Below, piece by piece: positions 1 through 62,537 of a stretch of 64,000 bases of DNA (position 1 is its first letter; each line of letters starts with the position of its first letter). The stretch lies in assembly GCA_040388985.1 (NCBI GenBank), contig JAZKAU010000002.1:420114-484113 (forward strand). Direction: 5' to 3'. Source of the DNA: Patescibacteria group bacterium (lineage in GTDB: Bacteria > Patescibacteriota > Minisyncoccia > Phycocordibacterales > Phycocordibacteraceae). Under the pieces are notes generated by a model, which ran no database searches, had not been told where the DNA came from, and saw only the letters and a list, made by a program, of their open reading frames with translations. A program made the position numbers and the translations under genes.

Positions 1-485
1 CCATGCTTTCGCTCGCTTCGCGCAGCTCCGCCTTCTACGTGGCGAATCAGCTTATCGCCGCCGGTATCGTTTCCAAGGACAAGCAAGGCAAGCTCATCCC
101 GGCTGCGGGGCTTTATGCGGCACCCTTGCTCGGCCATATCCGCGCCGGCTTCGCAGCGCCTGCAGAGGAGGAGCTGGCTGACACCATTACGGTGGGGGAG
201 TATCTGCTGCCGCGTCCGGACGCGAGTTACCTCCTCACGGTCGAGGGGGACTCGATGATAGACGCGGGCATACAGTCGGGCGATATGGTGGTCTTCGAGC
301 GCACGAGCGACGTGAAGGTCGGCGATATCGTAGTCGCGCTCACCGAGGACGGGTACACACTCAAGTACCTGCGGCGCAAGGCCGGACGGTTGTGCCTGGA
401 GGCGGCCAACGATGCCTATCCTGATATACATCCCCGCGAAGGCGAAATCGTGGGGAAAGTGGTGTCGACCTTTAGAACATACTAA
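1..485 (+). CDS. lexA: LexA repressor, C-terminal S24 peptidase domain (5' end outside window)
   Basis: Translation carries the S24 autocleavage region (AAGxP linker; 'VEGDSM' Ser motif; downstream Lys 'TLKYLRRK'). Architecture matches the LexA C-terminal half. A Y-family polymerase gene follows immediately. Confidence 0.8.
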   Translation, partial: MLSLASRSSAFYVANQLIAAGIVSKDKQGKLIPAAGLYAAPLLGHIRAGFAAPAEEELADTITVGEYLLPRPDASYLLTVEGDSMIDAGIQSGDMVVFERTSDVKVGDIVVALTEDGYTLKYLRRKAGRLCLEAANDAYPDIHPREGEIVGKVVSTFRTY

Positions 486-487
486 AA

Positions 488-640
488 GTCCCATCTGCTT
501 TGTTACTCATTCCGGTGCCTCGTCACGTACGCCCCTGTTTACTTACGAGTCATCGAGTTAGTAAACAGGAAGTGCCCTTGGGGCGCAGCCCATACGGCTC
601 CTTCGGCTCCTCACTCGCGCCTCGCATCTGAGAGCTTTTA
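488..640 (+). repeat. Intergenic repeat family 1, copy H (contains an extra internal palindrome)
   Basis: 'gtcccatctgctttgtt...cgtcacgtacgcccc...cgcgcctcgcatctgagagctttta' aligns to copy G. Carries an inserted 10-bp-arm palindrome, cctgtttact-N16-agtaaacagg. Confidence 0.7.
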
Positions 641-677
641 GAGATGTTCTAACCTGCTTAGTACGCGCATTTCGTCT

Positions 678-4058: not shown

Positions 4059-7000
4059 TTATCCTACGCTATCTTTAGTGTACTGTGCGCGTATCTTTTT
4101 CCCTGGCCATCGGAAATACAGCATCGGAATAAGAACGAGGGTGAGGAGGAGCGAGAAGGCGAGACCGGACATGATGGCGAAGGCCAGCGGCGCCCAGAAG
4201 GCGGAGGCCAAGGTGAGCGGCACCATGCCGATGACGGTCACGATCGTCGTAAGCAGTATCGGACGCAGACGTGTGCTCGCCGCTTCGACGACGACTTCTT
4301 CGAGGCTGTAGTCAGCATGCTCCCGGTGAATGCGCGCGACGGAGTCCATGAGGATGATAGCGTGATTGATGATGACACCGGCTAGCGCGATGACGCCCAG
4401 CATGGAGGTCAGCGATAGCGGCTGACCTACGAGCGTAAGGCCGGCGAAGACTCCCACCAAAGAAAGCGGAATTATCAAGAGAAGGTAGAACGACTGGCGG
4501 AAGGAGTTGAATTCGAGGACGAGTATGGCGAGCATGAGCGCAGCGCCCGCGATGAGCGCGACGAAGAGCTGCGTGAAGGAGTCCGACACGTCTTCGGATG
4601 CTCCACCGACTTTCATGGTTACCCCTTTGCCGAGCATGTCGGGGGTGAAGCGCTTCTGGAACTCATTGCTAATCTGAATGGCATTCGCACTCGCTGCGAT
4701 ATCGGCAGTCACGGTCGAGATGCGGTTACCAGCTTCGTGGGAAATGGATGTCTGAGCTGGCTCATACGTGATGGTCGCGATACTCGAAAGCGGGACCGGA
4801 CCCGCGCTTCCCGGCACGGTAAGCGCCCGTACGGCGTCGATAGAGACGTCCGTCGTCTCGCTCGGATCCTTGTAGTTGGGGTTGAGGTTCAGCTTCGTGC
4901 GCACTTCGATATCGTCCTTGCCGGTGCGTATAGACGTAGCCTTGGTGCTGAAGAGCGCCGTGCGCAGCGTATCGGAGACGACGACAGGGGAGACACCGAG
5001 CTCGCTTGCTCGGCTCGGGTCAAGCGCGACTACGAACTCGCTGCTCGCATTCTTGGTGTCGGTGTTGACCGTGACGACGCCGGGAATGTCGTTCAATACG
5101 CGCGCGGCAGCGTCAGCGCTCCCCGAAAGCTCGCCGAGATCCTCGCCGGTGAAGGTGAGGGTGACGGGGGCCGCCGCAGGCGGCCCTCCCGCAGGCTCGC
5201 CTACGGTCACGGTAGCTGACGTGATAGGCGCGAGCTCCTTGCGCAGTTCTTCTACGAAGGCAGCGCTCGTCTCCTTGTGGCCTTTAGGAAGGTTGACCGT
5301 GATGTTCCCGATATTGCCGCCTCCCGCGCCCCCGCCGAACCCGCTTCCCGCGAACGACGAGCCAGAGCCCGTCTCGCTCACGAAGGAGGCTACGTGCGGA
5401 TTAGCGTATAGCACCTCCTCTACCTCGCGCATGGAAAGATCCGTGCCGCCGAGGTCGGTGCCTTGCGGCTTCTCGATCTGCACGTAGACGAAGTCGCTAT
5501 CGTCTGACGGGAAGAAGATCGACTTGAGCAGACCGGTCGCGGGAAGCGCGAGCGCTAGCACGAAGAGCAGGGCCATGGCGACGAGGAACCGATTCTGATT
5601 CTTTCTGTTCGCGAGGAATCGGTGCAGGAAGCCCTGATACCAGGTCTTAGCTGCCTGGTTATAGCGTTCCTGGCGCATCTCGAGCTTCCCATGGGTCGGG
5701 TGTACGAAATAGACGGCAAGCAGCGGAACGATGCCGAGCGCTACGAAGATGCTCGCGAGCAGGACGAAGATGACCGTGAACGGGATGCTTGCGAGGAACT
5801 TGCCGATGATGCCTGAGAGGAAGAAGAGCGGCACGAAGACGGCGATAGTGGTGAAAGTCCCGGCGAAGAGCGGCCAGGCATATTCCCGTATGGCCGCGAC
5901 GGCTGCCTCGTCCTTATTCCCGGTCTTTATAAGCCGGGTATGGAAGGCCTCGACCACGACGATGCCGGAGTCCACCAATATACCGATGGCAAGGATGAGG
6001 GAGAAAAGCGAAACATTATTGAGCGTGTTCCCGAAGGCGACCATGCCGATGAAGGCGATAAGGAAGGAAAGGGGGATGGAGGCCGCTGCGACTAGGGATT
6101 CGCGTAGGCCAAGCGTGAAGTACAGGACGATCATCACGAGGATGACGGTCTCGATACCCGCGCGCGTAAGCTCGACGAGGCTCTTGTTCACTTCCTGCGC
6201 GCCGTCGTAGGAGATGACGGTATTGGTGCCCGCAAGGATGCCGGTCTGAAGTTCCTTGAGCTTATTCTCAACTGCCTGGCCGGTGCGTACGATGTTGCCA
6301 CCGCGGCTCTTGAATACCGTAAGGGTGAGTGATGGCTGCGCTGGGGCGCCCGCGACTGAGACGCGCGAATACGTACTCGGGTCTTCAAGCCCGTCGACCA
6401 CGTCCGCCACGTCGCGCACATGGATGCTGCTACCTGCGGCCGAAGGAATGACGACATCCGCTACCTGATCGGTAGTGGTGACGGCTGATTCGAAGCGCAC
6501 CGCATACCGTACGCCATCTACCGTGATGTTGCCTGCAGGGGAGGCGACACCGGCAGCGCGGATGGCGTTAGTGACGTCCGATAGCGAGAGGTTGTACTGG
6601 CGCAAACTTTCCTGGCGGGCGATGACCTGCACCTGGCGCGCGCGTATGCCCGAGATGCTTACCTTCGAGACACCTGGCACACGCTTCACTTCATCGCTCA
6701 CTTGCTCGCTGAGCGCGGTCAGCTCTCCGGCAGCAAGGTTTCCGGATACGGAAATGATGAGAATAGGCTGGTCAGCGAAATTGACGTCCGAGACGGTGGG
6801 AGCGGTCGCTTCCGTAGGCAGATCGGGCCGTACTTTGTCGACGGCATCCTTGAGAAGTTGTATGGATTTATCGATGTTGGCAGAAGAATCGAATTCGACC
6901 GAGACTGAGGAGATGCCTGCGCCAGAGCTCGAAGTAACTTTCGAGACATGCTCGACGCCGAGCACGCCACTCTCGATCTTGTCGGTTACGAGGCGTTCGA

Positions 7001-7178
7001 CATCGCTTGCCGAGGCTCCGGGAAGCGCCGTCGTGACGATACCAAGCGGTATGGAAATATCCGGACTCGCTTCCTTAGGAATGCTAGCGACTGCATAGAA
7101 GCCCGCGATAAGCAGGACGATAACGAGGAATATCGTAAAGCTGCGCTTGCGAAGGAAGAAACTCCAGAAGGACGTCAT
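4059..7178 (-). CDS. RND superfamily efflux permease (AcrB/HAE-type)
   Basis: 1039 aa with two large periplasmic loops and 12 TM helices. AcrB-like N-terminus. Sits directly downstream of the MFP gene. Confidence 0.85.
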   Translation of the reverse strand: MTSFWSFFLRKRSFTIFLVIVLLIAGFYAVASIPKEASPDISIPLGIVTTALPGASASDVERLVTDKIESGVLGVEHVSKVTSSSGAGISSVSVEFDSSANIDKSIQLLKDAVDKVRPDLPTEATAPTVSDVNFADQPILIISVSGNLAAGELTALSEQVSDEVKRVPGVSKVSISGIRARQVQVIARQESLRQYNLSLSDVTNAIRAAGVASPAGNITVDGVRYAVRFESAVTTTDQVADVVIPSAAGSSIHVRDVADVVDGLEDPSTYSRVSVAGAPAQPSLTLTVFKSRGGNIVRTGQAVENKLKELQTGILAGTNTVISYDGAQEVNKSLVELTRAGIETVILVMIVLYFTLGLRESLVAAASIPLSFLIAFIGMVAFGNTLNNVSLFSLILAIGILVDSGIVVVEAFHTRLIKTGNKDEAAVAAIREYAWPLFAGTFTTIAVFVPLFFLSGIIGKFLASIPFTVIFVLLASIFVALGIVPLLAVYFVHPTHGKLEMRQERYNQAAKTWYQGFLHRFLANRKNQNRFLVAMALLFVLALALPATGLLKSIFFPSDDSDFVYVQIEKPQGTDLGGTDLSMREVEEVLYANPHVASFVSETGSGSSFAGSGFGGGAGGGNIGNITVNLPKGHKETSAAFVEELRKELAPITSATVTVGEPAGGPPAAAPVTLTFTGEDLGELSGSADAAARVLNDIPGVVTVNTDTKNASSEFVVALDPSRASELGVSPVVVSDTLRTALFSTKATSIRTGKDDIEVRTKLNLNPNYKDPSETTDVSIDAVRALTVPGSAGPVPLSSIATITYEPAQTSISHEAGNRISTVTADIAASANAIQISNEFQKRFTPDMLGKGVTMKVGGASEDVSDSFTQLFVALIAGAALMLAILVLEFNSFRQSFYLLLIIPLSLVGVFAGLTLVGQPLSLTSMLGVIALAGVIINHAIILMDSVARIHREHADYSLEEVVVEAASTRLRPILLTTIVTVIGMVPLTLASAFWAPLAFAIMSGLAFSLLLTLVLIPMLYFRWPGKKIRAQYTKDSVG

Positions 7179-7203
7179 GGTATGGGTGAGGCAGGGGGCC
7201 CTG

Positions 7204-8781
7204 CTACGAGTCGGTGGCGACGTTCACTTTCTGTCCCTCGGACAGGCCACGCACGTCGGTGACGATGCGCATATCGCCCGTGAGTCCCGTGAGTACTTCG
7301 ATGCGATCGCCACGTACCTCGCCGATGGTAACCGGATGCGCGACCAGACGTCCGTCACTCCCTACCGTGAAGACCGAGCGGGAGTTAGCCATGAGCTTTA
7401 CGGCAGTCAGTGGGATGAGTTGCACGGAGGATGTTGCGACAGGGGCGACTGCCGCTGCTGGTGCGCTATTGGGAAGCGTAATACGTACCGACTGGCCGTT
7501 CGTAAGCGCTGGCGTTCCCGAAGGCGCGCTCGCCGTATCAACCGCTATATCGACCTCTATCTGCTTCGTCGTCGGATCAAGGGCGGGAGCGACGGTAGTG
7601 ATGATGCCCGTATAGCCGCCTTCGACCTGTACCTTCATGCCAGCGGTAAGGTTCTGGCGATCGGATTCGGAGACGTACGCCACAATCTCGAGCGCGCCGT
7701 TCTGGGCCACGGTCGCCACGTGCGTGAAGGCCGTCACGTAGTCGCCCACATGCACCGATAGGAAGTTAACCGTTCCGCCGATGGTCGCGCGGATACGGGT
7801 CTTCTCTAAGTTGGCCTGCGCGCCACGCAGCACGCCGAGCGCCTGCTTCACGCTTGCGTCCGCGCTTGCGGTCGCTCCGACCGTGCCGGTACGAAGGCTT
7901 CCCTTGGCTGCAGCCAGTTTCGCAAGCGTAGCGTCAATGTTCGCTCGTGCACTGGCGAGCGCGGCGATCTGTTCGGGAGTGGCGCGGGAATCGCGGTCGT
8001 TTGCTGCTGCCGAGAGTTCGAGGAGGAATTCAGAGACTGCCTGGGTGTCGGTAGTGGCCTGGGCAAGCAGGGTAGCGGGATCGGCACTTGCGGCGCTCCC
8101 AAGCTTCTGCTGCCACGCTATGATGCGCTTACCGAGCGCATCGCGCTTGCGATCGAGGTCCTTACTCGGCCCTTGATTGATGAGCAGGCGCGGCCCCGTA
8201 GCGGTCGGTCCGCCGAAGAACTGGTCGATGTCGTTCTCAAGTATGGTATCGACCGTCGTGTATGCGGCTGCGTACGTATCGGCAGCCGAGGCTCGGGTAT
8301 CGGGAAGCGACTGCGCGCTGCGCGCTGCGATAGCGGCGTCATAGGCGCCTTCTGCCTGCAGCACTTGCGCCGCTTCGCTTGCGTTATCGAGTTCAGCGAT
8401 GACGGCGCCTGCGGATACGGAGGCGCCGAGCTTCGTATTCACGCTCCTCACCGTGCCGCCTGTCTGCGCGAGCAGATCCGCCTCGGTCACTGAGCGCACC
8501 GAGCCGAGTATCGAGACGCCGTCGCCGTTTCCAGAGAGAGAGGAGACGCTCGCGAGGGTCACGGTGCGCTCCTGCGGGCTCGCATCGGTGGCCTTTCCGC
8601 CGTGCGCAAGCGCAAAACCTGCGACGAGGAGAATAGCGACGAGAATGGCTATGGCCCACTGTAGCCATCGCTTGAGGCCCCGATACTTCTTCCACAAGGA
8701 AGAGAGGCGGGTTGTGATACCTATATAGAGGGAACGGAAGAAATTGCGCAGAGAAGTCATGAGACCTTGTTTATACAGCAT
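7204..8781 (-). CDS. Efflux RND periplasmic adaptor (membrane fusion protein, HlyD/AcrA family) with long coiled-coil
   Basis: N-terminal TM, long Ala/Gln-rich coiled coil, C-terminal beta-barrel/lipoyl-like motifs. First gene of the MFP-RND-MFS operon. Confidence 0.75.
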   Translation of the reverse strand: MLYKQGLMTSLRNFFRSLYIGITTRLSSLWKKYRGLKRWLQWAIAILVAILLVAGFALAHGGKATDASPQERTVTLASVSSLSGNGDGVSILGSVRSVTEADLLAQTGGTVRSVNTKLGASVSAGAVIAELDNASEAAQVLQAEGAYDAAIAARSAQSLPDTRASAADTYAAAYTTVDTILENDIDQFFGGPTATGPRLLINQGPSKDLDRKRDALGKRIIAWQQKLGSAASADPATLLAQATTDTQAVSEFLLELSAAANDRDSRATPEQIAALASARANIDATLAKLAAAKGSLRTGTVGATASADASVKQALGVLRGAQANLEKTRIRATIGGTVNFLSVHVGDYVTAFTHVATVAQNGALEIVAYVSESDRQNLTAGMKVQVEGGYTGIITTVAPALDPTTKQIEVDIAVDTASAPSGTPALTNGQSVRITLPNSAPAAAVAPVATSSVQLIPLTAVKLMANSRSVFTVGSDGRLVAHPVTIGEVRGDRIEVLTGLTGDMRIVTDVRGLSEGQKVNVATDS

Positions 8782-19425: not shown

Positions 19426-20148
19426 ATGGAAACTACGAAAGGAAATAACGTCTTTGTGGAACGCTACCTGACGCCGATAGCGGTCCTGCTCGCAGCAGTC
19501 ATCATCGCCTTCGCCTTCATCTTCGGGCGCGGAGCGGGCGCTCCGGCGACCCAGCCGGTAGGCACGGCGGCACAGCCTACGGTGAATATCGCGGACGTGA
19601 AGACGGATAATGAGCCATTCATCGGCGACAAGAATGCGCCGACGACTATGGCGCTCTACTACGACTATCAGTGCCCGTTCTGCAAGCAGTTCGAAGAAGG
19701 GGTAACGCCGCAGCTCATAGAGAAGTACGTGTCGACCGGAAAGACGAAGATCGTCTTCAAGGACTTCCAGTTCCTCGGGAATGACTCCATCGACGCTGCC
19801 GTATTCGGACGCGCGCTCTGGGAGAGTCAGCCGGATAAGTTCTATCCGTGGTTCGTCGCCATGTTCGGCGCCCAGGATGACGAGGGAGATAAAGGTTTCG
19901 GCGACATGGCTTCTATCGATAAGCTGGCCGCGACCGTTCCTGGCCTCGATGTCGCTAAGGTCGACGCGCTCATAGCGAAGAATCGTCCGGCATATGAAGC
20001 ACTCGCTGCCGCTGATCGCGCAGAAGGCGCATCGTTCGGCATCAACGGTACGCCGACCATCATCGTCGGGACGCAGATATTCTCGGGCATGTCTCCTGCG
20101 CAGTTCTACACGAGCATCGCAGGCGTTCTCGACTCCGAGTTGAAGTAA
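19426..20148 (+). CDS. DsbA-family thiol:disulfide oxidoreductase (membrane-anchored, CPFC active site)
   Basis: N-terminal TM. 'YYDYQCPFCKQFE' CxxC. 'GINGTPTIIVG' cis-Pro loop. Confidence 0.8.
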   Translation: METTKGNNVFVERYLTPIAVLLAAVIIAFAFIFGRGAGAPATQPVGTAAQPTVNIADVKTDNEPFIGDKNAPTTMALYYDYQCPFCKQFEEGVTPQLIEKYVSTGKTKIVFKDFQFLGNDSIDAAVFGRALWESQPDKFYPWFVAMFGAQDDEGDKGFGDMASIDKLAATVPGLDVAKVDALIAKNRPAYEALAAADRAEGASFGINGTPTIIVGTQIFSGMSPAQFYTSIAGVLDSELK

Positions 20149-20152
20149 GTCA

Positions 20153-20262
20153 CTTGAAATTCCCCGATCTGCTGCGTTGCTTATTCCGAGCCTCCTTCAC
20201 CGTACGCTCTAGTACGACTCAGTTCGGTTCTCATTCGCGCCTTGCATATCGGGTTTTTCAGG
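20153..20262 (+). repeat. Intergenic repeat family 1, copy A
   Basis: gaaattccccgatctgctgcgttgc...ccgtacgctctagtacgactc...gcgccttgcatatcgggtttttcag. Confidence 0.85.
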
Positions 20263-20290
20263 CGACTTAAGAAGTTGAAATCTCAAGTAC

Positions 20291-20323
20291 ACAACGGGCG
20301 CAGCCTTCGGCTGCGCCCGTTGT
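20291..20323 (+). terminator. Perfect 15-bp stem / ttcg tetraloop hairpin
   Basis: acaacgggcgcagcc-ttcg-gctgcgcccgttgt. Confidence 0.5.
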
Positions 20324-20342
20324 GTTGTATCCTAGAAGCATC

Positions 20343-24589: not shown

Positions 24590-24600
24590 CTGATATGCAA

Positions 24601-24641
24601 GGTAAGAGGCGGCCCCCATGGGGCCGCCTCTTACCTTTTTA
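24601..24641 (+). terminator. Rho-independent terminator
   Basis: ggtaagaggcggcccc-catg-gggccgcctcttacc ttttta. Confidence 0.75.
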
Positions 24642-29606: not shown

Positions 29607-29852
29607 ATGAAAAAGCTTACGCGCAGCAGGGATAATCGGGTGATCTGGGGCGTGCTCGGGGGAGTCGGCGAATACTTCAATATCGACCCCGTTATATGCC
29701 GTCTCATCTTCATACTCCTCACGCTTCCAAGCGGGCTCGTTCCAGGCATCCTTATCTACATCGTGGCGACCATCATCATTCCTGAAGAGCCGCTCGCCGT
29801 ACCCAACAACAAACCTGCATCGGGTACGACCACTAACGATGAGGCTGTGTAA
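29607..29852 (+). CDS. PspC-domain protein
   Basis: 'RSRDNRVIWGVLGGVGEYFNIDPVICRLIFILL' is the PspC signature. Confidence 0.7.
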   Translation: MKKLTRSRDNRVIWGVLGGVGEYFNIDPVICRLIFILLTLPSGLVPGILIYIVATIIIPEEPLAVPNNKPASGTTTNDEAV

Positions 29853-29861
29853 AAACGCCAA

Positions 29862-29960
29862 ATGCAAGGCGCTGAGGAGTGAAAGGCCGAGTCGTACTCA
29901 GGCGTACGGTGAGGCCTTGAACGACGAGAGCAACGCAGCAGTTGGTGGAATTTACGCAGT
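29862..29960 (-). repeat. Intergenic repeat family 1, copy D
   Basis: Reverse complement: ...ctgctgcgttgctctcgtcgttcaaggcctcaccgtacgcctgagtacgactcggcctttcactcctcagcgccttgcat... Confidence 0.85.
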
Positions 29961-29963
29961 CTC

Positions 29964-30773
29964 ATGACGATACAGCAGTTTAGGACAATAGTCTGGAAAC
30001 ACTATAAAGCCCACGGCAGGCACAGCCTGCCGTGGCGTGCTACGACTGATCCGTATCGTATACTCCTCTCGGAAGTGATGCTCCAGCAGACGCAGGTGGA
30101 ACGAGTCATCCCGTACTATCGCTCCTGGATGAAGGTGTATCCGACGCCGAGACGACTCGCCGGCGCATCGCTCGCTGATGTCCTTACGCATTGGCAAGGA
30201 CTCGGCTATAACCGCCGCGCGAAGATGCTGCATGAGGCGGCGAAGGCAATCGTGCGCGACTACGACGGAAAGATGCCAAAGTCGGTCGAGGAGCTAGAGT
30301 CCCTTCCCGGCATAGGACCGTACACGGCGCGCGCCGTAGCAGCCTTCGCCCATAATCAGGACGTTATTTTCATAGAGACGAATATCCGCACGGCTATCAT
30401 CCATCACTTCTTCAGAGCGCGAAAGATAGTCGACGATACGGAAATACAGAAAATTCTCGAGAAGGCCTTCCCGAAGGGAAAATCGCGGGAATGGTATGCC
30501 GCTCTCATGGACTACGGCGCCTCTCTCAAGCGCTCGGGCATTCGTCTGAACGATAAGAGCAAAGGACATATGAGGCAGTCAGCCTTCAAGGGCTCAGGCA
30601 GGGAGGTCCGGGGCGCGATACTGCGGGAACTCGCGCGAGGCTCTGCCTCGCGCGCAAAGCTCCTTTCGATACTTGGGCCCGCGCGCAAAGAACAAGCCAC
30701 CGAACAGTTGGAGAAGCTGCACCGTGAAGGCATGATCTGCAAAGAGGGACGTTCATATTCTCTACCTGCCTGA
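29964..30773 (+). CDS. HhH-GPD DNA glycosylase (MutY/EndoIII-like, no Cys cluster)
   Basis: 'SEVMLQQTQVERVIPYY', HhH 'LESLPGIGPYTARAVAAFA'. Short (269 aa), with no NUDIX-like C-terminal domain and no FeS Cys. Confidence 0.7.
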   Translation: MTIQQFRTIVWKHYKAHGRHSLPWRATTDPYRILLSEVMLQQTQVERVIPYYRSWMKVYPTPRRLAGASLADVLTHWQGLGYNRRAKMLHEAAKAIVRDYDGKMPKSVEELESLPGIGPYTARAVAAFAHNQDVIFIETNIRTAIIHHFFRARKIVDDTEIQKILEKAFPKGKSREWYAALMDYGASLKRSGIRLNDKSKGHMRQSAFKGSGREVRGAILRELARGSASRAKLLSILGPARKEQATEQLEKLHREGMICKEGRSYSLPA

Positions 30774-31554: not shown

Positions 31555-31711
31555 ATATCTATCTATACACTCCCGACGAAGGAAAGAATCCTAGCGTAAA
31601 ATTCCCTAAGACGAGGCGCGGGAAAGCAATTTTTGAAAACGTACTGATCGTACGGTGGAAAAAATTGTAGGGGCCCGCAACGAAGTATTAGGGGATTTTA
31701 CGCGGATTCGT

Positions 31712-33715
31712 TCACACCCCGATAAGTACAGGGATAACCATCGGTGCCTTGTTAGTGCAATTGAACAGATACCCCGCCATCACATCCGTCAGATTGTTCT
31801 TCACGTAGTCGAGATCGACCGGATTCATACCTTGCGTCGAATCTTCCACGGTCTTCTTGATCAGAAGGCGCGCCTGGTTGAGAAGTTCCTGGCTCTCACG
31901 CAGATAGATGAAGCCGCGAGAGATGATGTCGGGCGACTTGCGGAGCTTTCCGGTCTTGAGGTTCACCGTCGCGATGATGACGAACATGCCGTCCTTCGCG
32001 AGCATCTGGCGGTCTCGGATGACTACTTCCTGCATATCGCCGATAGCGAAGCCGTCGACGACGAGTGGCGCTGATGGCACCTTCTCCTTATGTATGTTGA
32101 GCGTCGTGCCGTCGACGACGTCGATGACGGTGCCGTTATCCGCGAGGATGATGCTGTCGCGCGCTCTGCCTGCCTGCTCGACCGCTTTGGCGTGCGAGAA
32201 GGTCATGGAGTAATAGCCATAGCCAGGCATGAAGAACTTGGCATTCACCTGCTGATTTATCCAGACGAGCTCGCCTGAGTTACCATGGCCGGTCGAGTGC
32301 ACGTCGCTCGTGCGGTAGTTGATGATGGTCGCGCCGTTGCGATAGAGATTGTCTTTCAGCTTCTGTACGCTCACCTCGTTGCCTGGAATGACGGAAGACG
32401 AGAGGACGACGGTATCGCGAGCGGTGAGCGCTATGAACTTATGTTGTTTGGTAGCGATGCGCATGAGCGCGGCGAATTCCTCGCCCTGAGCGCCGGTCGA
32501 GAGGATGACGATCTTATCCGGAGGATAGTCGCCGATTTCCTGCGCTGAGATGATCGTCTCCTTCTTTACCGTGAGAAGCCCGGTCTTCTGTGCGATCTCG
32601 AGGTTCGTGCGAATGGAGCGTCCCTCGGTAACGATCTTCTTGCCCATGCTCTCGGCTATCTGGATGATGCGGATCATGCGCTCGAACTGCGAGGCGAAGG
32701 TACCGATGATAAGGCGGCCGGAGACGGTGCGCACTATTTCCTCGAGCGTAGTGTTCACGCGGCTCTCAGGAATGGAGAAACCGTCGCGCTCAGCGTTCGT
32801 CGAGTCGGCGATGAAGAAAAGGTTATTGTCTTTGGCGAGTTCGCCCCATACCCGCTTCTCCTTCTCGGACGGGATGCCGTCCTCATGCTCGAGCTTCAGG
32901 TCGCCGGTCACGACGACGTTGCCGTAGGGAGTCTCGACTGAGACGCCCATAGAGTCCGGAATAGAGTGCGTGACCGGGAAGAACTTCACGGTGGTCGAGC
33001 CGATTGAACGACTCGTACCGGTCTCGACGACGATGATCTCTGGCCTCGGCATGTCGGGATACTCTTCCTGGCGCTTTGCGATCATCACCGCGGTCAGGTT
33101 CTGGGTGTAGATAGGCGGATTGCCGAAGCGATTCATCAGGAAGGGGATGCCGCCGATGTGGTCGAGGTGCCCGTGCGTGATGATAGCTGCGCGTACGCGA
33201 TCCTTATTGTGTTCGAGATACGCGGTATTCGGAAGCATATAGTCGACGCCCGGTGTTGTCTCTTCCGAGACGAACTGGAAGCCGACATCGAAGATGAAGA
33301 TATCGTTTCCGACCTCGAGCGCGACCATGTTGCGGCCGACTTCTTCGACACCGCCGAGCGGGACGATACGCACGACGTTCGGCGCTACTGGCTCTGGGAA
33401 ATAATCGGCTCCTCGCTTCTGTGCGGGTGCAGGGCCGCGACGACCGCCGCCTCCGCCGCGACGCGCGTCACGCATGCCGCGATTACCTCCGCCGCCTCGT
33501 GGAGGACGGTTTGAGGATGAGGATCCGCTGTTCGGGCGTCCTGCGCCTTGCTGGCCTTGAGGACGCGACGCGGGTCGCGCGGGACCGGCAGATGCTCCCG
33601 GTGCGCGACGCGGGCCTTGGGGCCTGCCACTGCTACGCGGATGTGGTCGGTCTGATATGGGTTGCTCTCTGCGCGGCGACTGCGGCGCGGGTGCTGGAGC
33701 GGGTGCTGGAGACAT
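31712..33715 (-). CDS. rnj: Ribonuclease J (MBL/beta-CASP) with ~125-aa Arg/Gly/Pro-rich N-terminal extension
   Basis: 'IITHGHLDHIGGIP' MBL motif, beta-CASP and C-terminal domain. N-terminus 'APAPAPAPQSPRREQ...RPPRGGGGNRGMRDARRGGGGGRRG' is in-frame low-complexity sequence. Confidence 0.85.
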   Translation of the reverse strand: MSPAPAPAPAPQSPRREQPISDRPHPRSSGRPQGPRRAPGASAGPARPASRPQGQQGAGRPNSGSSSSNRPPRGGGGNRGMRDARRGGGGGRRGPAPAQKRGADYFPEPVAPNVVRIVPLGGVEEVGRNMVALEVGNDIFIFDVGFQFVSEETTPGVDYMLPNTAYLEHNKDRVRAAIITHGHLDHIGGIPFLMNRFGNPPIYTQNLTAVMIAKRQEEYPDMPRPEIIVVETGTSRSIGSTTVKFFPVTHSIPDSMGVSVETPYGNVVVTGDLKLEHEDGIPSEKEKRVWGELAKDNNLFFIADSTNAERDGFSIPESRVNTTLEEIVRTVSGRLIIGTFASQFERMIRIIQIAESMGKKIVTEGRSIRTNLEIAQKTGLLTVKKETIISAQEIGDYPPDKIVILSTGAQGEEFAALMRIATKQHKFIALTARDTVVLSSSVIPGNEVSVQKLKDNLYRNGATIINYRTSDVHSTGHGNSGELVWINQQVNAKFFMPGYGYYSMTFSHAKAVEQAGRARDSIILADNGTVIDVVDGTTLNIHKEKVPSAPLVVDGFAIGDMQEVVIRDRQMLAKDGMFVIIATVNLKTGKLRKSPDIISRGFIYLRESQELLNQARLLIKKTVEDSTQGMNPVDLDYVKNNLTDVMAGYLFNCTNKAPMVIPVLIGV

Positions 33716-33991
33716 ATGCTAGATGCTAATTGGGAGATTAATAGACTGAACTAAGAATGCACGAATTGCGTGCGTACGAAAACGAGGACGAACGGTCAGG
33801 AACGGGAATACCCAGGAACACAGATGAGGGAAGGCTTATATCCTTTATACACTATCTTTTACGACTTGCCAGCTCCCACGTCGTGGATAAGCCCGCTGAA
33901 AAACTCGGTATCCAAGGCGCGGGAAGGAATTTCAGGGGAGCGCGACGCATCGGAGTACCCGAAGGGGTGCAACGCAGGAGAGCGAGGAATT

Positions 33992-35716
33992 TCAGCGGGC
34001 GAACCATGGCCAGACGTGCTCCGTATACGTATACCAATGACTCACGTCCCAGAACCTGTCCGAAGGCGATCCGACGCGCGTGAGCGCGACTCCCGAAAGG
34101 GAAGAGGGCACAGAATACAGGAAATCAGGCGTATAGAGGAAGGCGGCCGGATAGTCGCTCGCGATGCGATCCTGTATCTGGTCAAGCGTTTCCAGCCGTC
34201 CCTGGCCGTCCGTTCCTGCGCGCACGCTCTCAAGAAGCGCATCCGTAGTCTTGTCAGCATAGCCGGTGATATTGAGTCCCGGATCTTTCTGCTCATTCGA
34301 GCTCCAGAAGGCGTAAAGGTCAGGATCGCTGCCGATGACTTCGCCGAAGAGGAGTGCGCCGTAGGCGCGCGGCCGGATGACCGTCTGCGTGAGCTCGTTC
34401 GGTTCATATAGCTTCAGCTCCGTCGGGATGCCGAGGGCCTGCCAGTCGCTCTGTACTGCCGCTGCTACTGATTTCAGTTCCGGCACGTTCGAAGTGGTAA
34501 GCGTGAGGTGTAATATCTCACCCTTCTTGCTCCATACGTTCTGGTCGGTATCGAATGTCCATCCCGCGCTCGTGAGTGTTTGCCGCGCTTCATCAAGCCT
34601 GGTCGCAGGATCCGGAAGCGGTACCGGATTCACGCCGCTGCCGCCTGGCAGCGGCCCCATGAGCGGCGTCGCGTAGTTGCCAAGGACATCTTTTACGAGC
34701 GCACTTCGATCGATGGCAAGCGAGAGCGCCTTGCGCACGCCTGCGTCCGTCAAGAGCGGTTCCTGCGTCTGGTTAAAGAAGACGCCGAAGATGCGGGAAT
34801 AGGGAACTGCGTGCGCATCCTTGCTTGCGATGCCGTACGCACTCGTAATGGTGCCTGATGCGAAGGCCTTCTTGAGCGATGCCTGGTCCGCGAAGAAGGA
34901 CATGGTGATATGCGCGAGATACGGCCGACCAGTCGCGAACGCTCCAAAGGCGGACAAGCGATAGCTGGTGATGACGCCGTTAGAAGCGCGCGTCACGGAA
35001 TCGACCTTGAACGGTCCTGCGCCGATAGGATTCGTGGCGTAGGGCGAGAACGGGAATTCCTCATTCGCGACATCACGCCACACATGCTGAGGCAATATGC
35101 CGAGCGTCGTGTCTTCAAGGAACGGAGCGTAGGCCTTCGGAAGGATGAAGCGCACCGTGCGTGCGTCTACCGTCTCGGCCCGTATGTTCGCCCAATTGGC
35201 GAGCAAAGGACTCTTAAGGCTCGGATCCTGCGCCTTCTCGACCGTATAGACTACGTCGTCTGCGGTCACGGGCGTGCCGTCCGAGAACGTCGCATTGGGC
35301 CGTAGCGCGAAGGTATAGGTAGTGCCGTCTTCGGAGACCGTATACGACTGCGCGAGCACGGGCACGAGCGCGCCGGCCCCGTCATGGCCCATGAGGCCTG
35401 CGTAGGTGAGCGCGACCAGATCCCGGTCAGTATCAGATATGGCCAAGAGAGGATTCACGAAGCGCGGAGCTCCTACTACTCCTTCCCTCAGCGTCCCGCC
35501 ATAAGCAGGCACGACGACCTGATGCGCTCTGGCAAGGGCGAAAAGGCCGACTAAGCTCGTCAGTATGACGAGCACGCCGAGAACCAGGGCTATGAACTGG
35601 TCGCCCGGCGAGAGTTGCCTGACGAATCCTCGTACTCCGGAAAAGACCGAATCTGCTCGCAGACTGAGCCTGCGACTCTCGTGCAACTGGGTAGAAGGGA
35701 AGGATGAAGGGGACAT
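33992..35716 (-). CDS. ABC transporter substrate-binding protein, family 5 (oligopeptide/nickel type), orphan
   Basis: N-terminal TM anchor and SBP_bac_5-like length and motifs. No adjacent permease or ATPase genes. Confidence 0.75.
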   Translation of the reverse strand: MSPSSFPSTQLHESRRLSLRADSVFSGVRGFVRQLSPGDQFIALVLGVLVILTSLVGLFALARAHQVVVPAYGGTLREGVVGAPRFVNPLLAISDTDRDLVALTYAGLMGHDGAGALVPVLAQSYTVSEDGTTYTFALRPNATFSDGTPVTADDVVYTVEKAQDPSLKSPLLANWANIRAETVDARTVRFILPKAYAPFLEDTTLGILPQHVWRDVANEEFPFSPYATNPIGAGPFKVDSVTRASNGVITSYRLSAFGAFATGRPYLAHITMSFFADQASLKKAFASGTITSAYGIASKDAHAVPYSRIFGVFFNQTQEPLLTDAGVRKALSLAIDRSALVKDVLGNYATPLMGPLPGGSGVNPVPLPDPATRLDEARQTLTSAGWTFDTDQNVWSKKGEILHLTLTTSNVPELKSVAAAVQSDWQALGIPTELKLYEPNELTQTVIRPRAYGALLFGEVIGSDPDLYAFWSSNEQKDPGLNITGYADKTTDALLESVRAGTDGQGRLETLDQIQDRIASDYPAAFLYTPDFLYSVPSSLSGVALTRVGSPSDRFWDVSHWYTYTEHVWPWFAR

Positions 35717-43795: not shown

Positions 43796-44160
43796 CGGAC
43801 CGGCACAGACGATCGCTCGGTCGCAAGATCGAGAGGAAAGTCCGAACACAGGCCAGGGCGCAAGTCCTGGCAGCAGGGTAGCGGGTAACGCCCGTCCGCA
43901 GCGATGCGCGAGGTGCGAGCAGAAACGTTCGATTCCGAAAGGATAGAAGCTCTCCAGCAGAGCGTTCTGGCGGCGACGCCAGAGTGAAACGGCTAAATCC
44001 TTACCTCTGTGCAAGGCCGTGCCGAGCCTATTCTTTAGAATAGGCTCGGAGCGCCGCTTGAATCTTCTAGTAATAGAAGATCTTAGATAGATGGTCGTCT
44101 CCGTCATCCGCCAGCTGGCGGATAGCGGAACAGAATTCGGCTTATCGTGCCGATCCGAAC
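43796..44160 (+). ncRNA. rnpB: RNase P RNA, bacterial type A
   Basis: 'GAGGAAAGTCCGaacACAGgCCAGGGcGCaAGtcCTGGcagcAGGGTAgCgGGTAACGCCcG' matches the conserved P4/P7-P10 core. The 3' 'ACAGAAttCGGCTTA' pairs with 5' 'AGTCCGAA' (P4). P1 pairs 43793-43804 with 44147-44158. A terminator follows. Confidence 0.85.
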
Positions 44161-49374: not shown

Positions 49375-51160
49375 TATCAGGAATTTTAGTATTGTGGCGC
49401 ATGTGGACCACGGAAAATCGACCCTCGCGGATCGCATGCTTGAACATACCGGTACGATTGAAGTACGTCATATGAAAGATCAGGTGCTTGACCGCATGGA
49501 TCTTGAGCGCGAGCGGGGCATTACTATCAAGATGCAGCCGGTGCGCATGAAGTTCAAAGCCAAGGACAGTCAGGAGTACACTCTGAATTTGATTGATACG
49601 CCAGGCCATATTGATTTTGCCTATGAGGTTTCAAGGTCCCTCTCGGCCGTCGAGGGCGTCATTCTGCTCGTCGACTCGACCCAGGGCATCCAGGCGCAGA
49701 CCCTTACCACGCTCGGTATGGCGCGTGAGGCTGGCTGCGTAATCATTCCGGTCATCTCGAAGATAGACGCGCCGGCGAGTCGCCCGGACGACGTCATCCT
49801 GGAACTCTCCGCGCTCCTTGACGTCGATCCGTCGAGCGTACTCGCGGTATCGGGTCGTACCGGTGCGGGCGTCGAGGAACTGCTCGAAGCCGTGGTCTCC
49901 CGAGTTCCTGCGCCGCGGGCGAGCGAAGGCACCGACTCGCGCGCGCTCATTTTCGATTTTTCCTTCTCAAGCCATCGCGGTATCGCCGTTTTCGCGCGCG
50001 TATTCGACGGCTCCTTCAAGAAAGGGGACGTGCTCAGGTTCTCAGCCGCTGGAGAGCGATTTACGGCCCTTGAAACGGGTGTCTTCATGCCTGACGAGAC
50101 ACCTACCGAGACGCTTGGCGCCGGCGAGATAGGCTACATCGTGACGGGCGTGAAGGAGGCGGGTGTCGTTGCCGTGGGAGACACTATACTGACCGACCGC
50201 GGCTCGCGCGAGCCGCTCGCAGGCTTCGAGCTGCCGCGTCCGGTCGTCTGGGCCTCCGTCTATCCTGAGAGCCAGGACGATCTTACGGAGCTACGCCAGT
50301 CGCTCGAGCGTCTGCGTCTTTCGGACTCCTCGCTCTCCTTCGAGGAGGAGTCCTCCGGCGTGCTCGGCCGTGGTTTTCGCTGCGGCTTCCTCGGCATGCT
50401 GCATCTGGAAATCGTCACTGAACGCTTGAAGCGTGAATTCAATCTCGAGCTCATCGTGACCATCCCGACAATCGCCTACAACGTGACGACCAAGGACGGC
50501 AAGCGCGAGACTATCTATACGCCGTCCAGGTTCCCGGCCTTCGGGGACGTCGTGAGCATCGAGGAGCCCTGGGTGAAGGTCGTGCTCATGACCCCGAACG
50601 AGTCCCTATCCGGCATGATGCAGCTTTTCCATGACCATGAGGGAGACGTAAAAGACACCGAGACACATCTGGATGGCCGTATCGAGCTTACCGCCGAGAT
50701 GCCGCTGCGCGAGCTCATGCGCGGCTTCTTCGATAAGGTGAAGAACGCCTCGAGCGGGTACGCATCCCTTTCCTACGAATTCCTTGACGAGCGTCCGGCG
50801 GACGTCGTGAAGCTCGAGATATATGTGGCTGAAGAGCCTGTGCCAGCGTTTGCGCGCGTGGTAGCGCGTCGTCGCGTCGAGATAGAAGGGGAGAAGATGG
50901 TCGAGAAGCTCGAGAAGATCCTGCCACGGCAGATGTTCGTGCTCAAGATCCAGGCGCATGCGCTCGGCCGCATCATCGCGAGTAAGTCCATCTCGGCGCT
51001 CCGCAAAGACGTCACGGGATACCTCTATGGAGGCGATATAACGCGCAAGATGAAGCTGCTTGAGAAGCAGAAGAAGGGGAAGAAGAGACGCGGTGCTCAC
51101 GCAAAAATGGATATACCGCAGGATGTTTTTATGAAAATGGTCCAGGACTCCGAGCGTTGA
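49352..51160 (+). CDS. lepA: Elongation factor 4 (LepA)
   Basis: 'IRNFSIVAHVDHGKSTLADRML', 'DTPGHIDF', and the LepA-specific C-terminal domain. Confidence 0.95.
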   Translation: MEPLHITSIRNFSIVAHVDHGKSTLADRMLEHTGTIEVRHMKDQVLDRMDLERERGITIKMQPVRMKFKAKDSQEYTLNLIDTPGHIDFAYEVSRSLSAVEGVILLVDSTQGIQAQTLTTLGMAREAGCVIIPVISKIDAPASRPDDVILELSALLDVDPSSVLAVSGRTGAGVEELLEAVVSRVPAPRASEGTDSRALIFDFSFSSHRGIAVFARVFDGSFKKGDVLRFSAAGERFTALETGVFMPDETPTETLGAGEIGYIVTGVKEAGVVAVGDTILTDRGSREPLAGFELPRPVVWASVYPESQDDLTELRQSLERLRLSDSSLSFEEESSGVLGRGFRCGFLGMLHLEIVTERLKREFNLELIVTIPTIAYNVTTKDGKRETIYTPSRFPAFGDVVSIEEPWVKVVLMTPNESLSGMMQLFHDHEGDVKDTETHLDGRIELTAEMPLRELMRGFFDKVKNASSGYASLSYEFLDERPADVVKLEIYVAEEPVPAFARVVARRRVEIEGEKMVEKLEKILPRQMFVLKIQAHALGRIIASKSISALRKDVTGYLYGGDITRKMKLLEKQKKGKKRRGAHAKMDIPQDVFMKMVQDSER

Positions 51161-51164
51161 CCGA

Positions 51165-51285
51165 CCTCTAAAAGACCTCATCTGCGTTGTTGCAGCTTCA
51201 AGAATTTCTTCCGCCGTACGCTTCAGTACGTTTCCAGAAATTCTTTCGCTGCGCCTAGCACCTGAAGCCTTTTTAAAGGCCGTTC
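51165..51285 (+). repeat. Intergenic repeat family 1, copy E
   Basis: ...catctgcgttgttgc...ccgccgtacgcttcagtacgtttcc...gctgcgcctagcacctgaagccttttta. Confidence 0.75.
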
Positions 51286-51337
51286 AGTTGGTCAAACGAA
51301 CGTTACGAGTTGCCGAGACTTGCTATACTGAAGGACA

Positions 51338-51697
51338 ATGGCACGGCACCCAGCACCACGGAATCGTATGAAGGAATTGGTAACGGCAGTGATACTGTCG
51401 TTCGCCATCGTCTGGCTGGTCTTCCTGGTCGTAAGCATCTTTCGGAAGGAGGAGATAGCGCGTAAGACGGTAGCCGGGACGAAGGTCGAGCTTGCGGCAC
51501 TCGATACGCGTAAGAACGACCTCTCGAAGACCGTAAGCGACATGGATACCGAGCGCGGTCAGGAGGCATCACTGCGCGAGACGTTCGGGGTTGCGCGGCC
51601 GGGCGAGGACGTTATCATCGTAGTGCCGAAGACCGAGACAGCGCCTCCGCCGCAGCTCACGCTTTGGCAGCGGATCAAAGGCTTCTTCGGGCTCTAG
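51338..51697 (+). CDS. Septum formation initiator family protein (FtsB/DivIC-like)
   Basis: TM followed by a coiled-coil ('ELAALDTRKNDLSKTVSDMDTERGQEASLRE'). Confidence 0.55.
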   Translation: MARHPAPRNRMKELVTAVILSFAIVWLVFLVVSIFRKEEIARKTVAGTKVELAALDTRKNDLSKTVSDMDTERGQEASLRETFGVARPGEDVIIVVPKTETAPPPQLTLWQRIKGFFGL

Positions 51698-51821
51698 AGT
51701 GCGTCTAGAATCTCCATCTGCTGCGTTACGGGTCCCTGCTCGTTTCTCCGCCGTACGCCCTAGTACGTCTACGAAACTCGCTGTCCCGCGCCTTGCATAT
51801 GAAAATTCTAGACGCACTCTT
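51695..51821 (+). repeat. Intergenic repeat family 1, copy F (flanked by a 16-bp perfect inverted repeat)
   Basis: tagagtgcgtctagaat-[ctccatctgctgcgtt...ccgccgtacgccctagtacgtc...cgcgccttgcatatg]-aaaattctagacgcactct. Confidence 0.85.
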
Positions 51822-51831
51822 AATTACCGTT

Positions 51832-51902
51832 GCGGGTATAGTTTAGTGGTAAAATGGGACCTTCCCAAGGTTCAGATCGGGGTTCGATTCCCCGTACCCG
51901 CA
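51832..51902 (+). tRNA. tRNA-Gly (CCC)
   Basis: Acceptor gcgggta/tacccgc. Anticodon loop ttCCCaa. T-arm ggggttcgattcccc. 71 nt, no encoded CCA. Confidence 0.85.
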
Positions 51903-56466: not shown

Positions 56467-56497
56467 CTCCCTCCACTTGAGTGGCACGCAGAGAGGT

Positions 56498-56612
56498 TTC
56501 TGAAAAACTCGATATGCAAGGCGCTGAGGAGTGAAAGGCAGAGTCGTACTTAGGCGTACGGTGAGGTCTTGAGCGACGAGAGCAACGCAGCAGATCGGGG
56601 AATTTCAGGAAG
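56498..56612 (-). repeat. Intergenic repeat family 1, copy C
   Basis: Reverse complement: gcttcctgaaattccccgatctgctgcgttgc...caccgtacgcctaagtacgactc...gcgccttgcatatcgagtttttcag. Confidence 0.85.
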
Positions 56613-56617
56613 CTCCG

Positions 56618-60003: not shown

Positions 60004-60020
60004 AGTGAAGCGTCCTAAAA

Positions 60021-60120
60021 CGTCCATCTGCTTTGTTATGGGTCCCGCTTCGCATCTGCGTCGTACGCCCAAGTACGCCTACAAAGCTTAGCTTCCCATG
60101 CCTCGCATCTGGAGCCTTTT
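60021..60120 (+). repeat. Intergenic repeat family 1, copy G
   Basis: cgtccatctgctttgttatgggtcccgcttcgcatctgcgtcgtacgcccaagtacgcc...cctcgcatctggagcctttta. Confidence 0.8.
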
Positions 60121-60183
60121 AGACTCGCTTCATCAAATATAGCAAATATAAGCTTAATTTTCCGCCCCGACCTGTTAGTTAGA

Positions 60184-60297
60184 GCTTCCTGAAATTTCCC
60201 GATCTGCCGCGTTGTCGCTATCGCTCAAGTCCTCATCGTACGCTCAAGTACGACTCGGCCTTTCGCTCTGCTACGCCTTGCATATCGGGTTTTTCAG
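60184..60297 (+). repeat. Intergenic repeat family 1, copy B (overlaps the tsaD stop codon)
   Basis: cttcctgaaatttcccgatctgccgcgttg...tcgtacgctcaagtacgactc...acgccttgcatatcgggtttttcag. Confidence 0.85.
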
Positions 60298-61487
60298 AAA
60301 CCTCTATTCATGAGTCTCAGATTCCCGTCCGCACGCAATTCTTGAGGGTCCGCAAACTCTTTTCGAAGGGCATGAAAATAGCCCGCAAGACCTATCATCA
60401 CGGCATTATCGGTCGCAAGATTAAAAGGAGGTATACGGAGCGCCACGTCAGGATGTTCGTCCTTAATCTTCTCTTCGAATACGCGCCGTATATGGAGATT
60501 CGCAGAGACCCCGCCGCTTACCACGAGTGTTTTCGCCCCGGTCTCTCTCAGGGCAGCATCTGTCTTTGACCAGAGTACGTCAGCAGCTGCGTCTTCGAAT
60601 TCAAGAGCCATGTATTCTTTATCGGTCTGGCTGATGTCCGGATTCTTCTTAAGAAGATAGAGTACGGCAGTCTTGAGACCCGAGAAGGAAAAGTCATTCG
60701 TTCCGGACTTGATCATCGGACGCGGAAGCGTATACGGATTCTCTCCGCCTCTCCCACGTGCCACCTCTGCCAGCCGCGATATCTCAGGACCTCCGGGATA
60801 GGGGAGTCCGAGCATCCGGGCTACCTTATCGAAGGCTTCGCCAACGGAGTCGTCGAGCGTGCCGCCGATAGTCGCATACGAGAGCCAGTCGCTCATGAGT
60901 ACGAGATCCGTGTGGCCGCCTGCGATGCCGAGCGCGAGCAGAGGAAGTCTAGGCTCTTCGACAAACAGGTCTCCGTCCTCGTCTTTCGCGATCGCGGAGA
61001 CGATATGTCCTTCAAGGTGATTCACCGCTATGAGCGGCTTGTTCCAGGCGAGTGCGAGCGCCTTCGCGAAATTCACGCCTACCCAGAGCGCAGGTTCAAG
61101 ACCGGGGCCTGCCGTGACGGCGATAGTATCGATATCCGGCGTTTCCATCTCGAGGACTGACGCGAAGAAAAGTTCCGTAAGGCCGGGCTCGCGCTCAAGC
61201 ACGGTCGCGATAGCCTCATGTACTACTTCTGGCATGCTCTGCGTATCTTCGCGTAGCATCTGTGCTTCCGCGAGCGCGGCTTCAAGGAGCGGCACCAGAT
61301 TCTTCGCGTGTTCGCGCTTGGCCATCATCGGGTAGACGCCGCCGTACTGGGCGTGCAGCTCTATCTGCGAGAGCAGCGCATTTCCGAGCACGGCGAAGCG
61401 CGCAGCATTTCCTTCACCCGTTGATTCGCATTCCAGTAGTGCGACCGCGGTCTCATCACACGAAGTCTCTATCGCAAGGAGTTTCAT
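60294..61487 (-). CDS. tsaD: tRNA N6-adenosine threonylcarbamoyltransferase TsaD (Kae1/Gcp)
   Basis: 'LAIETSCDETAVAL', 'GGV..N' motifs, ~60-aa insertion. The stop codon lies inside the terminal 'tttttcag' of repeat copy B. Confidence 0.85.
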   Translation of the reverse strand: MKLLAIETSCDETAVALLECESTGEGNAARFAVLGNALLSQIELHAQYGGVYPMMAKREHAKNLVPLLEAALAEAQMLREDTQSMPEVVHEAIATVLEREPGLTELFFASVLEMETPDIDTIAVTAGPGLEPALWVGVNFAKALALAWNKPLIAVNHLEGHIVSAIAKDEDGDLFVEEPRLPLLALGIAGGHTDLVLMSDWLSYATIGGTLDDSVGEAFDKVARMLGLPYPGGPEISRLAEVARGRGGENPYTLPRPMIKSGTNDFSFSGLKTAVLYLLKKNPDISQTDKEYMALEFEDAAADVLWSKTDAALRETGAKTLVVSGGVSANLHIRRVFEEKIKDEHPDVALRIPPFNLATDNAVMIGLAGYFHALRKEFADPQELRADGNLRLMNRGF

Positions 61488-62495: not shown

Positions 62496-62537
62496 AACAA
62501 TACTCGAAAACGGTTCCCGTTTTCTCGTTTGTTTTTG

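Follow-up and report, generated by a model that had tools for sequence, protein, structure and literature searches.

A family of long hairpin repeats with a conserved core, placed close to stop codons in Patescibacteria and other phyla

Repeat copies in the window

The 64-kb stretch of DNA analysed here, called the window throughout, comes from a member of the Patescibacteria and is collinear with a Saccharibacteria MAG (L033) and with a second MAG (L037), so that it probably belongs to a Saccharibacteria genome. The window contains ten copies (Table 1), about one per 6 kb, of a repeat that is non-coding, about 125 bases long and able to form a hairpin. The neighbours of the copies are unrelated housekeeping genes, such as lepA and the genes for RNase J, TsaD and a tRNA synthetase. 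According to a covariance model the copies measure 110-181 nt and score 31-98 bits on the model strand, but less than 8 bits on the opposite strand. An HMM and the covariance model with filters off agree on exactly ten copies, and besides these no match in the window has an E-value below 0.01. The strict core, CGTACGC-N4-GTACG-N22-GCCTNGCA, is matched seven times in the window and not once in 100 shuffles.

The first-pass annotation had listed eight copies with a common architecture. All eight are valid and fit one architecture in the alignment, but the models add two more (c9 and c10), and the positions given at first, although they mark the right sites, are slightly short of the full hairpins. 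A same-strand gene lies upstream of five of the eight, as stated, and of seven of the ten once the new copies are added. Closer inspection also bore out three details: the 51.7-kb copy is bracketed by a perfect 16-bp inverted repeat, a tandem pair of copies separates the TsaD gene from a class I tRNA synthetase gene, and the TsaD stop codon (TCA on the plus strand, 60294-60296) falls inside the 3' arm of the 60.2-kb copy.

Table 1 Copies of the repeat in the window, in order of position
Feature	Position	Strand	Context and remarks
c1	472..652	+	Between umuD-like and umuC-like genes; hairpin length 181 nt, or 126 nt if a 55-nt insertion is left out
Hairpin nested in c1 apical loop	535..568	+	Perfect, CTGTTTACT..AGTAAACAG, 9-bp stem
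c2 (focal copy)	20146..20269	+	Stop TAA of DsbA-like gene (20146-20148) forms hairpin bases 1-3; CTGC at 20169-20172, TGCGTTGC at 20173-20180, central CGTACGCTCTAGTACG at 20201-20216; 3' arm with GCCTTGCA at 20239-20246 and T5 run at 20254-20258
c3	29839..29965	-	5' base overlaps start codon of divergent endonuclease III-like gene (29964-30773, +)
c9 (new)	31586..31709	-	Starts 2 nt past stop of RNase J gene (31712-33715, -)
c10 (new, degenerate)	33891..34000	-	Outer stem and both conserved arm motifs kept, central CGTAC hairpin gone; 5' arm contains stop TGA (33992-33994) of solute-binding protein gene
c4	51158..51286	+	lepA stop TGA (51158-51160) forms hairpin bases 1-3
c5	51696..51820	+	Begins at AG of the stop TAG of a DivIC-like gene; ends 11 nt before tRNA (51832-51902)
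c6	56493..56615	-	Starts 2 nt past hsp20 stop (56618-56620)
c7	60006..60132	+	Antisense to flanking genes; 5' base 2 nt from start codon of minus-strand class I tRNA synthetase gene (start codon and hairpin base within 60001-60006)
c8	60180..60306	+	Antisense to flanking genes; 3' arm holds TsaD stop and last three TsaD codons

Several copies depart from the common form or intrude on their neighbours. In c1, the 5' arm includes the umuD stop TAA, and the four final codons of umuD pair with the 3' flank; such pairing of the stem into the last codons of an upstream gene is also seen at a locus outside the window (L050). The hairpin nested in c1 is part of the 55-nt insertion in the apical loop. 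With one occurrence where 0 are expected, it is unique within the window, and it may represent another small element inserted into c1. The apical loop of c9 has 5 nt, compared with the usual 6. The inner element of c5 has CTAG on both sides (CTAG..CTAG) and is centred in the perfect palindrome AGAGTGCGT-CTAG-ACGCACTCT. An arm of c7 provides an AGGA 10 nt upstream of the tRNA synthetase start; in the related MAG L037, this site carries no element.

At gathering threshold, Rfam 15 identifies only RNase P and five tRNAs in the window. The RNase P RNA (class A, 43797-44160) scores only 119.8 bits against a threshold of 100 and contains extra inserted stretches; a 146-aa ORF opposite to it is probably spurious. 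The ORF at 48538-49374 (+), which runs 23 nt into the start of lepA, has a LAGLIDADG-like domain (E = 3e-7) and looks like a free-standing relative of homing endonucleases. Saccharibacteria are not usually associated with RND efflux pumps. The window, otherwise collinear with Saccharibacteria MAGs, encodes an AcrB-type RND transporter (1039 aa) and a HlyD-type membrane-fusion protein at 4059-8781 (-). Conventional short terminator-like hairpins are found at 20290-20325, which is 20 nt past the focal copy, at 24599-24637 and at 62506-62524, the last being bidirectional and adjoining a tRNA. Their presence indicates that the genome also uses ordinary terminators.

Fold, conserved core and distribution

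Each copy corresponds to one long, irregular, rod-like hairpin of about 45 bp. Full hairpins in the window measure 123-129 nt (181 nt in c1), even though their outer 8-10 bp differ completely between copies. The conserved order is CUGC-NN-CGUUGC, CGUACGC-N4-GUACG, exactly 22 nt, and GCCUNGCA; the spacing from GUACG to GCCU is exactly 22 nt in every strict copy. The outer stem comprises 20-27 nt per arm in most copies, with an A-run in its 5' side and a T-run in its 3' side. Inward of the outer stem there is a 2x2 mismatch, where CAUCUG is read on both arms, and further in follow a 3-bp helix (UGC/GCA), a 3x3 loop (NNC / CUN) and the helix GU(U)R / YGC, in which one U is bulged. Next to it are the inner stems, which are variable, and an internal loop rich in pyrimidines (..CUC.. 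on either side); the apex is a 5-bp helix CGUAC/GUACG with a 6-nt loop starting GC. The best-conserved positions are mostly unpaired or non-canonical and lie in the internal loops and short helices. Conserved loops of this kind imply a sequence-specific partner, which may be a protein or a fold of RNA or single-stranded DNA.

The fold suspected at first from the palindromic letters is borne out by compensatory changes: in 93 copies aligned to the model, the stems covary around the conserved loops. Standard pairs make up 89.2% of the cells, as against 75.9% after shuffling and at most 54% with slid partners. There are 239 double-sided changes where 87 are expected, and the observed covariation score was reached by none of 500 shuffles. 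The pair formed by columns 32 and 95 alternates between GC, AU and UA. The copies carry no ORF signal, and conservation tracks base pairing. When wide flanks were included, MFE folding yielded additional outer pairs that are spurious.

The two strands are not equivalent. On the model strand the unpaired bases are pyrimidines, and in 77 of the 93 copies the complementary strand has a predicted fold that is better by about 8 kcal/mol. The strand that usually matches the upstream gene is thus the one with the weaker predicted fold, and this tempers a reading of the repeat as RNA. In the outer stems of representatives, A.C mismatches outnumber G.T mismatches by 35:4, and pyrimidine-pyrimidine mismatches are far more frequent than purine-purine ones. 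The A.C excess does not fix the strand, because most of these mismatches sit at one homologous position and are not independent events. A choice of strand from the counts of G.U versus A.C (initially 60:7) was dropped; the inner stems lean the opposite way (17:9).

The resemblance among copies is not specific to the window, as relatives elsewhere share both core and ends. When 185,579 species-representative genomes were scanned once for the strict pattern, 74 loci emerged, of which about 69 are taken as real, since they also carry the upstream ATCTGC-NN-CGTTGC that was absent from the query. By record title, the carriers include Saccharibacteria, Kaiserbacteria, Paceibacteria and Peribacteria within the Patescibacteria, and outside them Syntrophaceae and Smithella, Nitrospirota, Betaproteobacteria, Clostridia, Verrucomicrobiia and Negativicutes, the last including an isolate, Sporomusa sp. 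KB1. The idea that the repeat might turn out to be a family of this one lineage therefore fails: the core is found in at least six phyla (Patescibacteria, Desulfobacterota, Nitrospirota, Betaproteobacteria, Bacillota and Verrucomicrobiota). A metagenome scan yielded 91 loci, and all 80 of those searched (80/80) match the covariance model at 55-109 bits. Genome and metagenome loci together hold more than 170 copies. With seven strict matches in 64 kb, the window is far denser than any scanned genome, the maximum being ten per whole MAG.

Some of these loci have features of their own. A copy in a MAG labelled Spirochaetota (L005, 1706-1828) is nearly identical to Syntrophaceae copies, flanks included, and the label could reflect a binning error rather than a separate phylum. 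One locus contains a tandem pair of copies (L140, 290-470), and two others contain back-to-back copies from two different sub-lineages (L099, 135-340; L106, 3936-4141).

The first-pass annotation did not recognise the repeat as a described element. Consistent with this, two copies have no match in Rfam 15 at E<=10. Two copies also gave no BLAST match among 72,556 plasmids and 50,697 phage records, and a pattern scan of IMG/VR gave 0 matches. In the searchable literature, the conserved strings led to one unrelated eukaryotic paper and keywords to general MITE/REP papers only.

When 1.4 million prokaryotic MITEs were clustered at 95% identity, 98.2% of the clusters fell within one genus (PMC11602168). 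Correia/CREE elements of Neisseria, ERIC/IRU of enterobacteria and RUP of pneumococcus resemble the present family in being intergenic palindromes of 100-160 nt without coding capacity that are co-transcribed with their neighbours, form RNA hairpins and have TA-containing targets. In contrast to this family, which has a fixed core in at least six phyla, they are confined to a genus or family. Homology to Correia elements was considered and rejected, as nhmmer with an HMM of this family, at maximum sensitivity, found no match to a Correia sequence whose ends were checked against PMC5039591.

Position relative to genes and stop codons

In the window and in the loci of relatives, the genes upstream of the copies share nothing with one another. 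The hairpin base is tightly linked to the stop codon of the upstream gene, a link that the first-pass annotation overlooked. From the stop of a co-oriented upstream gene to the first paired base, the median distance is 0 nt (IQR -2.5 to +7). The gap lies within -12..+6 in 26/35 cases, and the stop is often the first triplet of the stem itself. This result was replicated in an independent metagenome set. The remaining three kinds of gene boundary lie about 50 nt from the hairpin. Even where no gene ends, a stop-like triplet may mark the 5' boundary, as it does in c3, c7 and c8.

Between convergent genes the gap is 9 nt or less on the 5' side in 12/19 cases and on the 3' side in 2/19. The asymmetry arises in part because several lineages carry a 3' tail, in which a spacer of a constant 12-15 nt leads to another 3' arm, external to the first and truly complementary to the 5' arm. 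As to orientation, 56 copies are co-oriented with their neighbours and 30 are antisense, and few lie between divergent genes.

Some sites are occupied in more than one genome: hsp20 is followed by a copy in the window (c6), in L033 and in L037, and lepA by one in the window (c4) and in L033. The stems of these same-site copies are unrelated, and copies within a genome are more alike than same-site copies from different genomes. This fits turnover at preferred sites or concerted evolution. The copy 3' of lepA in L033 (3950-4160) is degenerate, having lost everything from the central CGTACG through the right end, and it keeps a perfect 21-bp outer inverted repeat. Two metagenome contigs (L095, ~2035-2040; L145, ~445-450) share an insertion site and differ solely in the boundary stop, which is TAA in one and TGA in the other.

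Origin and possible role

Our data support the initial description of a dispersed, non-coding, palindromic repeat of the MITE/REP type. The mobile origin proposed with it is supported too, by evidence that comes entirely from relatives of the window copies. Near-identical copies occur at unrelated sites in single MAGs, with many such copies in the Bacillota MAG BA1A108, in Syntrophaceae UBA5744 and in the betaproteobacterial MAG palsa_1005, and nearly all copies have terminal inverted repeats in the form of the complementary outer stem of 20-27 nt. In addition, 4-bp duplications are found. They were counted in a proteobacterial lineage with the ends CAGG..CCTG, taking the external 3' arm as the right end; identical flanking 4-mers (CTAG, CTAA, TCAG) are present in 6/13 non-redundant copies, compared with a control rate of 0.12. 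In a second lineage, with the ends TGATGG..CCATCA, four copies have 4-mers, recognized by eye, of which none is a YTAR (GGAG, ATGA, AAGC, AGCA). Despite these non-YTAR 4-mers, the copies lie at most 4 nt from the original stop. Bare hairpin ends, including those of the window copies, show no target duplication (observed 2.83, control 2.90).

The target duplication of IS5 is a 4-bp YTAR (PMC5009759). The CTAG/CTAA pairs conform to it, in the CAGG..CCTG lineage only and not in the window copies. CTAR has a stop triplet on both strands, so that an insertion into a stop codon restores the stop, and this explains the stop-codon link in that lineage. In several proteobacterial copies TA..TA occurs at equal offsets, but a 4-bp CTAR duplication fits the same data better, and there is no overall TA enrichment on the right flank. 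Counting TA..TA by regex does not give reliable numbers, since the sequence of the internal 3' arm departs from the true complement.

No transposase or autonomous element with matching ends was found in the window or in about 1.1 Mb of loci. Clustering of ORFs from 74 and then about 165 loci returned only housekeeping families and no partner protein, and the loci contain no isolated half-elements flanking a gene and no extra copies of lineage-specific ends. One example of the element ends is CAGGCTGTTGAAAAAC ... TTCAACACCCTG, the first of which may resemble the end of IS903.

On balance, we favour the view that the family consists of MITE-like interspersed hairpin repeats with an unusually conserved structured core, mobilised in trans and co-transcribed after genes. 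A DDE-type (cut-and-paste) transposase, supplied in trans, would spread the copies. Where the target is CTAR, as in at least one lineage, it would contain a stop triplet, and insertions at stops would then do no damage to the gene and would persist. After insertion, the element would be transcribed together with the flanking genes, and the transcript would fold as a long hairpin, either past the stop codon or between cistrons. Its position and shape suggest that the hairpin would most likely act on transcript ends, through termination, 3'-end protection or processing, and that it may also affect terminating ribosomes.

The closest parallel among transposon derivatives is only partial. Like IS5-derived MITEs, the repeats are short, non-coding and multi-copy and have terminal inverted repeats, and the CAGG..CCTG lineage has CTAG/CTAA repeats (PMC5009759). 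In contrast to those MITEs, no partner IS was found for the family in the window or the ~1.1 Mb of loci, its best conservation lies in the internal cross-phylum core and not in the ends, and the window copies have no recognisable duplication, while the second lineage duplicates non-YTAR 4-mers. A DDE transposase needs only the ends, which leaves the superior conservation of internal loops across phyla unexplained. Nor does a transposase explain why the asymmetric loops are conserved, why the length stays fixed although the outer pairs are copy-specific, or why pairing extends into the last codons of upstream genes. It is conceivable, if unlikely, that the core of about 80 nt is a functional structured module, either the binding site of a widely conserved protein or a catalytic or self-acting RNA, carried as cargo in transposon shells whose ends and target duplications vary among lineages; its stop-codon placement would then stem from a mechanism or from selection linked to translation termination and not just from the target sequence.

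Conserved loops and covarying stems are the usual signature of a functional RNA, and the repeats could be host cis-acting structures that do not move: a 3'-UTR or intercistronic domain at stop codons, bound by a conserved protein such as a ribonuclease or a ribosome-associated factor, kept by selection and distributed by ancient spread or gene transfer. Such a domain would account for the tight position relative to stop codons, the 56:30 bias to the mRNA strand, the presence of copies after hsp20 and lepA in genomes whose lepA DNA is only ~74% identical, and the persistence of copies in an apparently small, compact genome whose 64-kb window shows no transposase. However, 30/86 copies run antisense to the genes on either side, some are located between divergent genes, and near-identical copies with target duplications elsewhere indicate recent transposition. 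A host RNA is also at odds with the greater likeness of copies within one genome than at the same site across genomes, with upstream genes that share nothing, and with an mRNA-sense strand that has pyrimidine unpaired bases and a weaker predicted fold. We therefore consider this explanation distinctly unlikely.

A single-strand DNA element of the REP/REPIN-RAYT or IS200/IS605 (PATE) type, is more improbable still; here one DNA strand would form the hairpin during replication, and an HUH tyrosine (Y1) transposase would cut it and paste it beside a short target without duplication. Such an element would agree with the lack of duplication at bare hairpin ends, the strand-asymmetric outer-stem mismatches of the representatives (A.C 35, G.T 4), the biased orientation and the stop-like triplet at 5' boundaries without a gene end (c3, c7, c8). 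REPs, too, are abundant hairpins at gene 3' ends, often near stops and with compensating stem changes; in E. coli they reportedly cluster within 15 nt of stop codons, a result that Liang, Rudd and Deutscher are said to have obtained in 2015. HUH elements, however, make no direct repeats, whereas relatives of this family show 4-bp target duplications once the right end is placed at the external 3' arm, and most A.C mismatches sit at one homologous position. The repeats are 125 nt long, compared with REP units of 20-40 nt, their arms are not themselves palindromes, and REPs are species-specific. They have no conserved GTAG or CGTC tag of the kind described for REPs (PMC3733652). No RAYT gene or Y1 transposase was found in the 64-kb window, and no Y1 transposase among the ORFs of the loci.

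Ordinary intrinsic terminators that have become alike by convergence or through base composition are barely credible as an explanation. About half of the copies have a U-run of 4-5 after a G+C-rich inner stem, on both strands, and seven of the ten window copies follow a same-strand gene; as in bidirectional terminators, a 5' A-run and a 3' T-run surround the inner stem. In this family, however, the runs are internal to a longer stem: the T-run sits inside the 3' arm, with 8-10 further paired bases after it, and its length is equal on both strands and bears no relation to the direction of transcription. The conserved core sequence contradicts this reading, with 80 nt and an invariant 22-nt spacing common to several phyla, as do the far longer hairpin of ~45 bp with its conserved internal loops, the copies antisense to or upstream of genes, and the presence of conventional short terminators beside them in the window. 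A simple terminator scan did not flag the copies. We give equally little credence to integron attC-like recombination sites placed after each cassette ORF. These are also imperfect palindromes of similar length (~125 nt here) that begin right at the upstream ORF stop and are recognised by structure and unpaired bases, with conserved unpaired features and variable stems, but context and motif content speak against them: the base of the hairpin varies in sequence and lacks the RYYYAAC/GTTRRRY (R''/R') and L boxes, conservation lies at centre and apex, and the copies are scattered among housekeeping genes with no cassette array and no integrase.

As MITE-like hairpin repeats, the copies belong to a known kind of element (hairpin MITE/REP-like repeats). 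What is unusual is the fixed structured core across phyla and the precise placement at stop codons. Hairpin repeats are usually limited to one genus, whereas here a fixed core with exact spacing and covarying stems runs from Saccharibacteria to Syntrophaceae, Nitrospirota and Negativicutes, and in the window the copies are dense in an apparently small, streamlined genome. The cross-phylum core points to an interaction, so far unrecognised, with some component that all of the carrier bacteria share. It also provides a searchable motif for the study of hairpins at stop codons and of their relation to termination, mRNA ends and ribosome release. If the core were only a relic, the family would still mark horizontal transfer between distant phyla.
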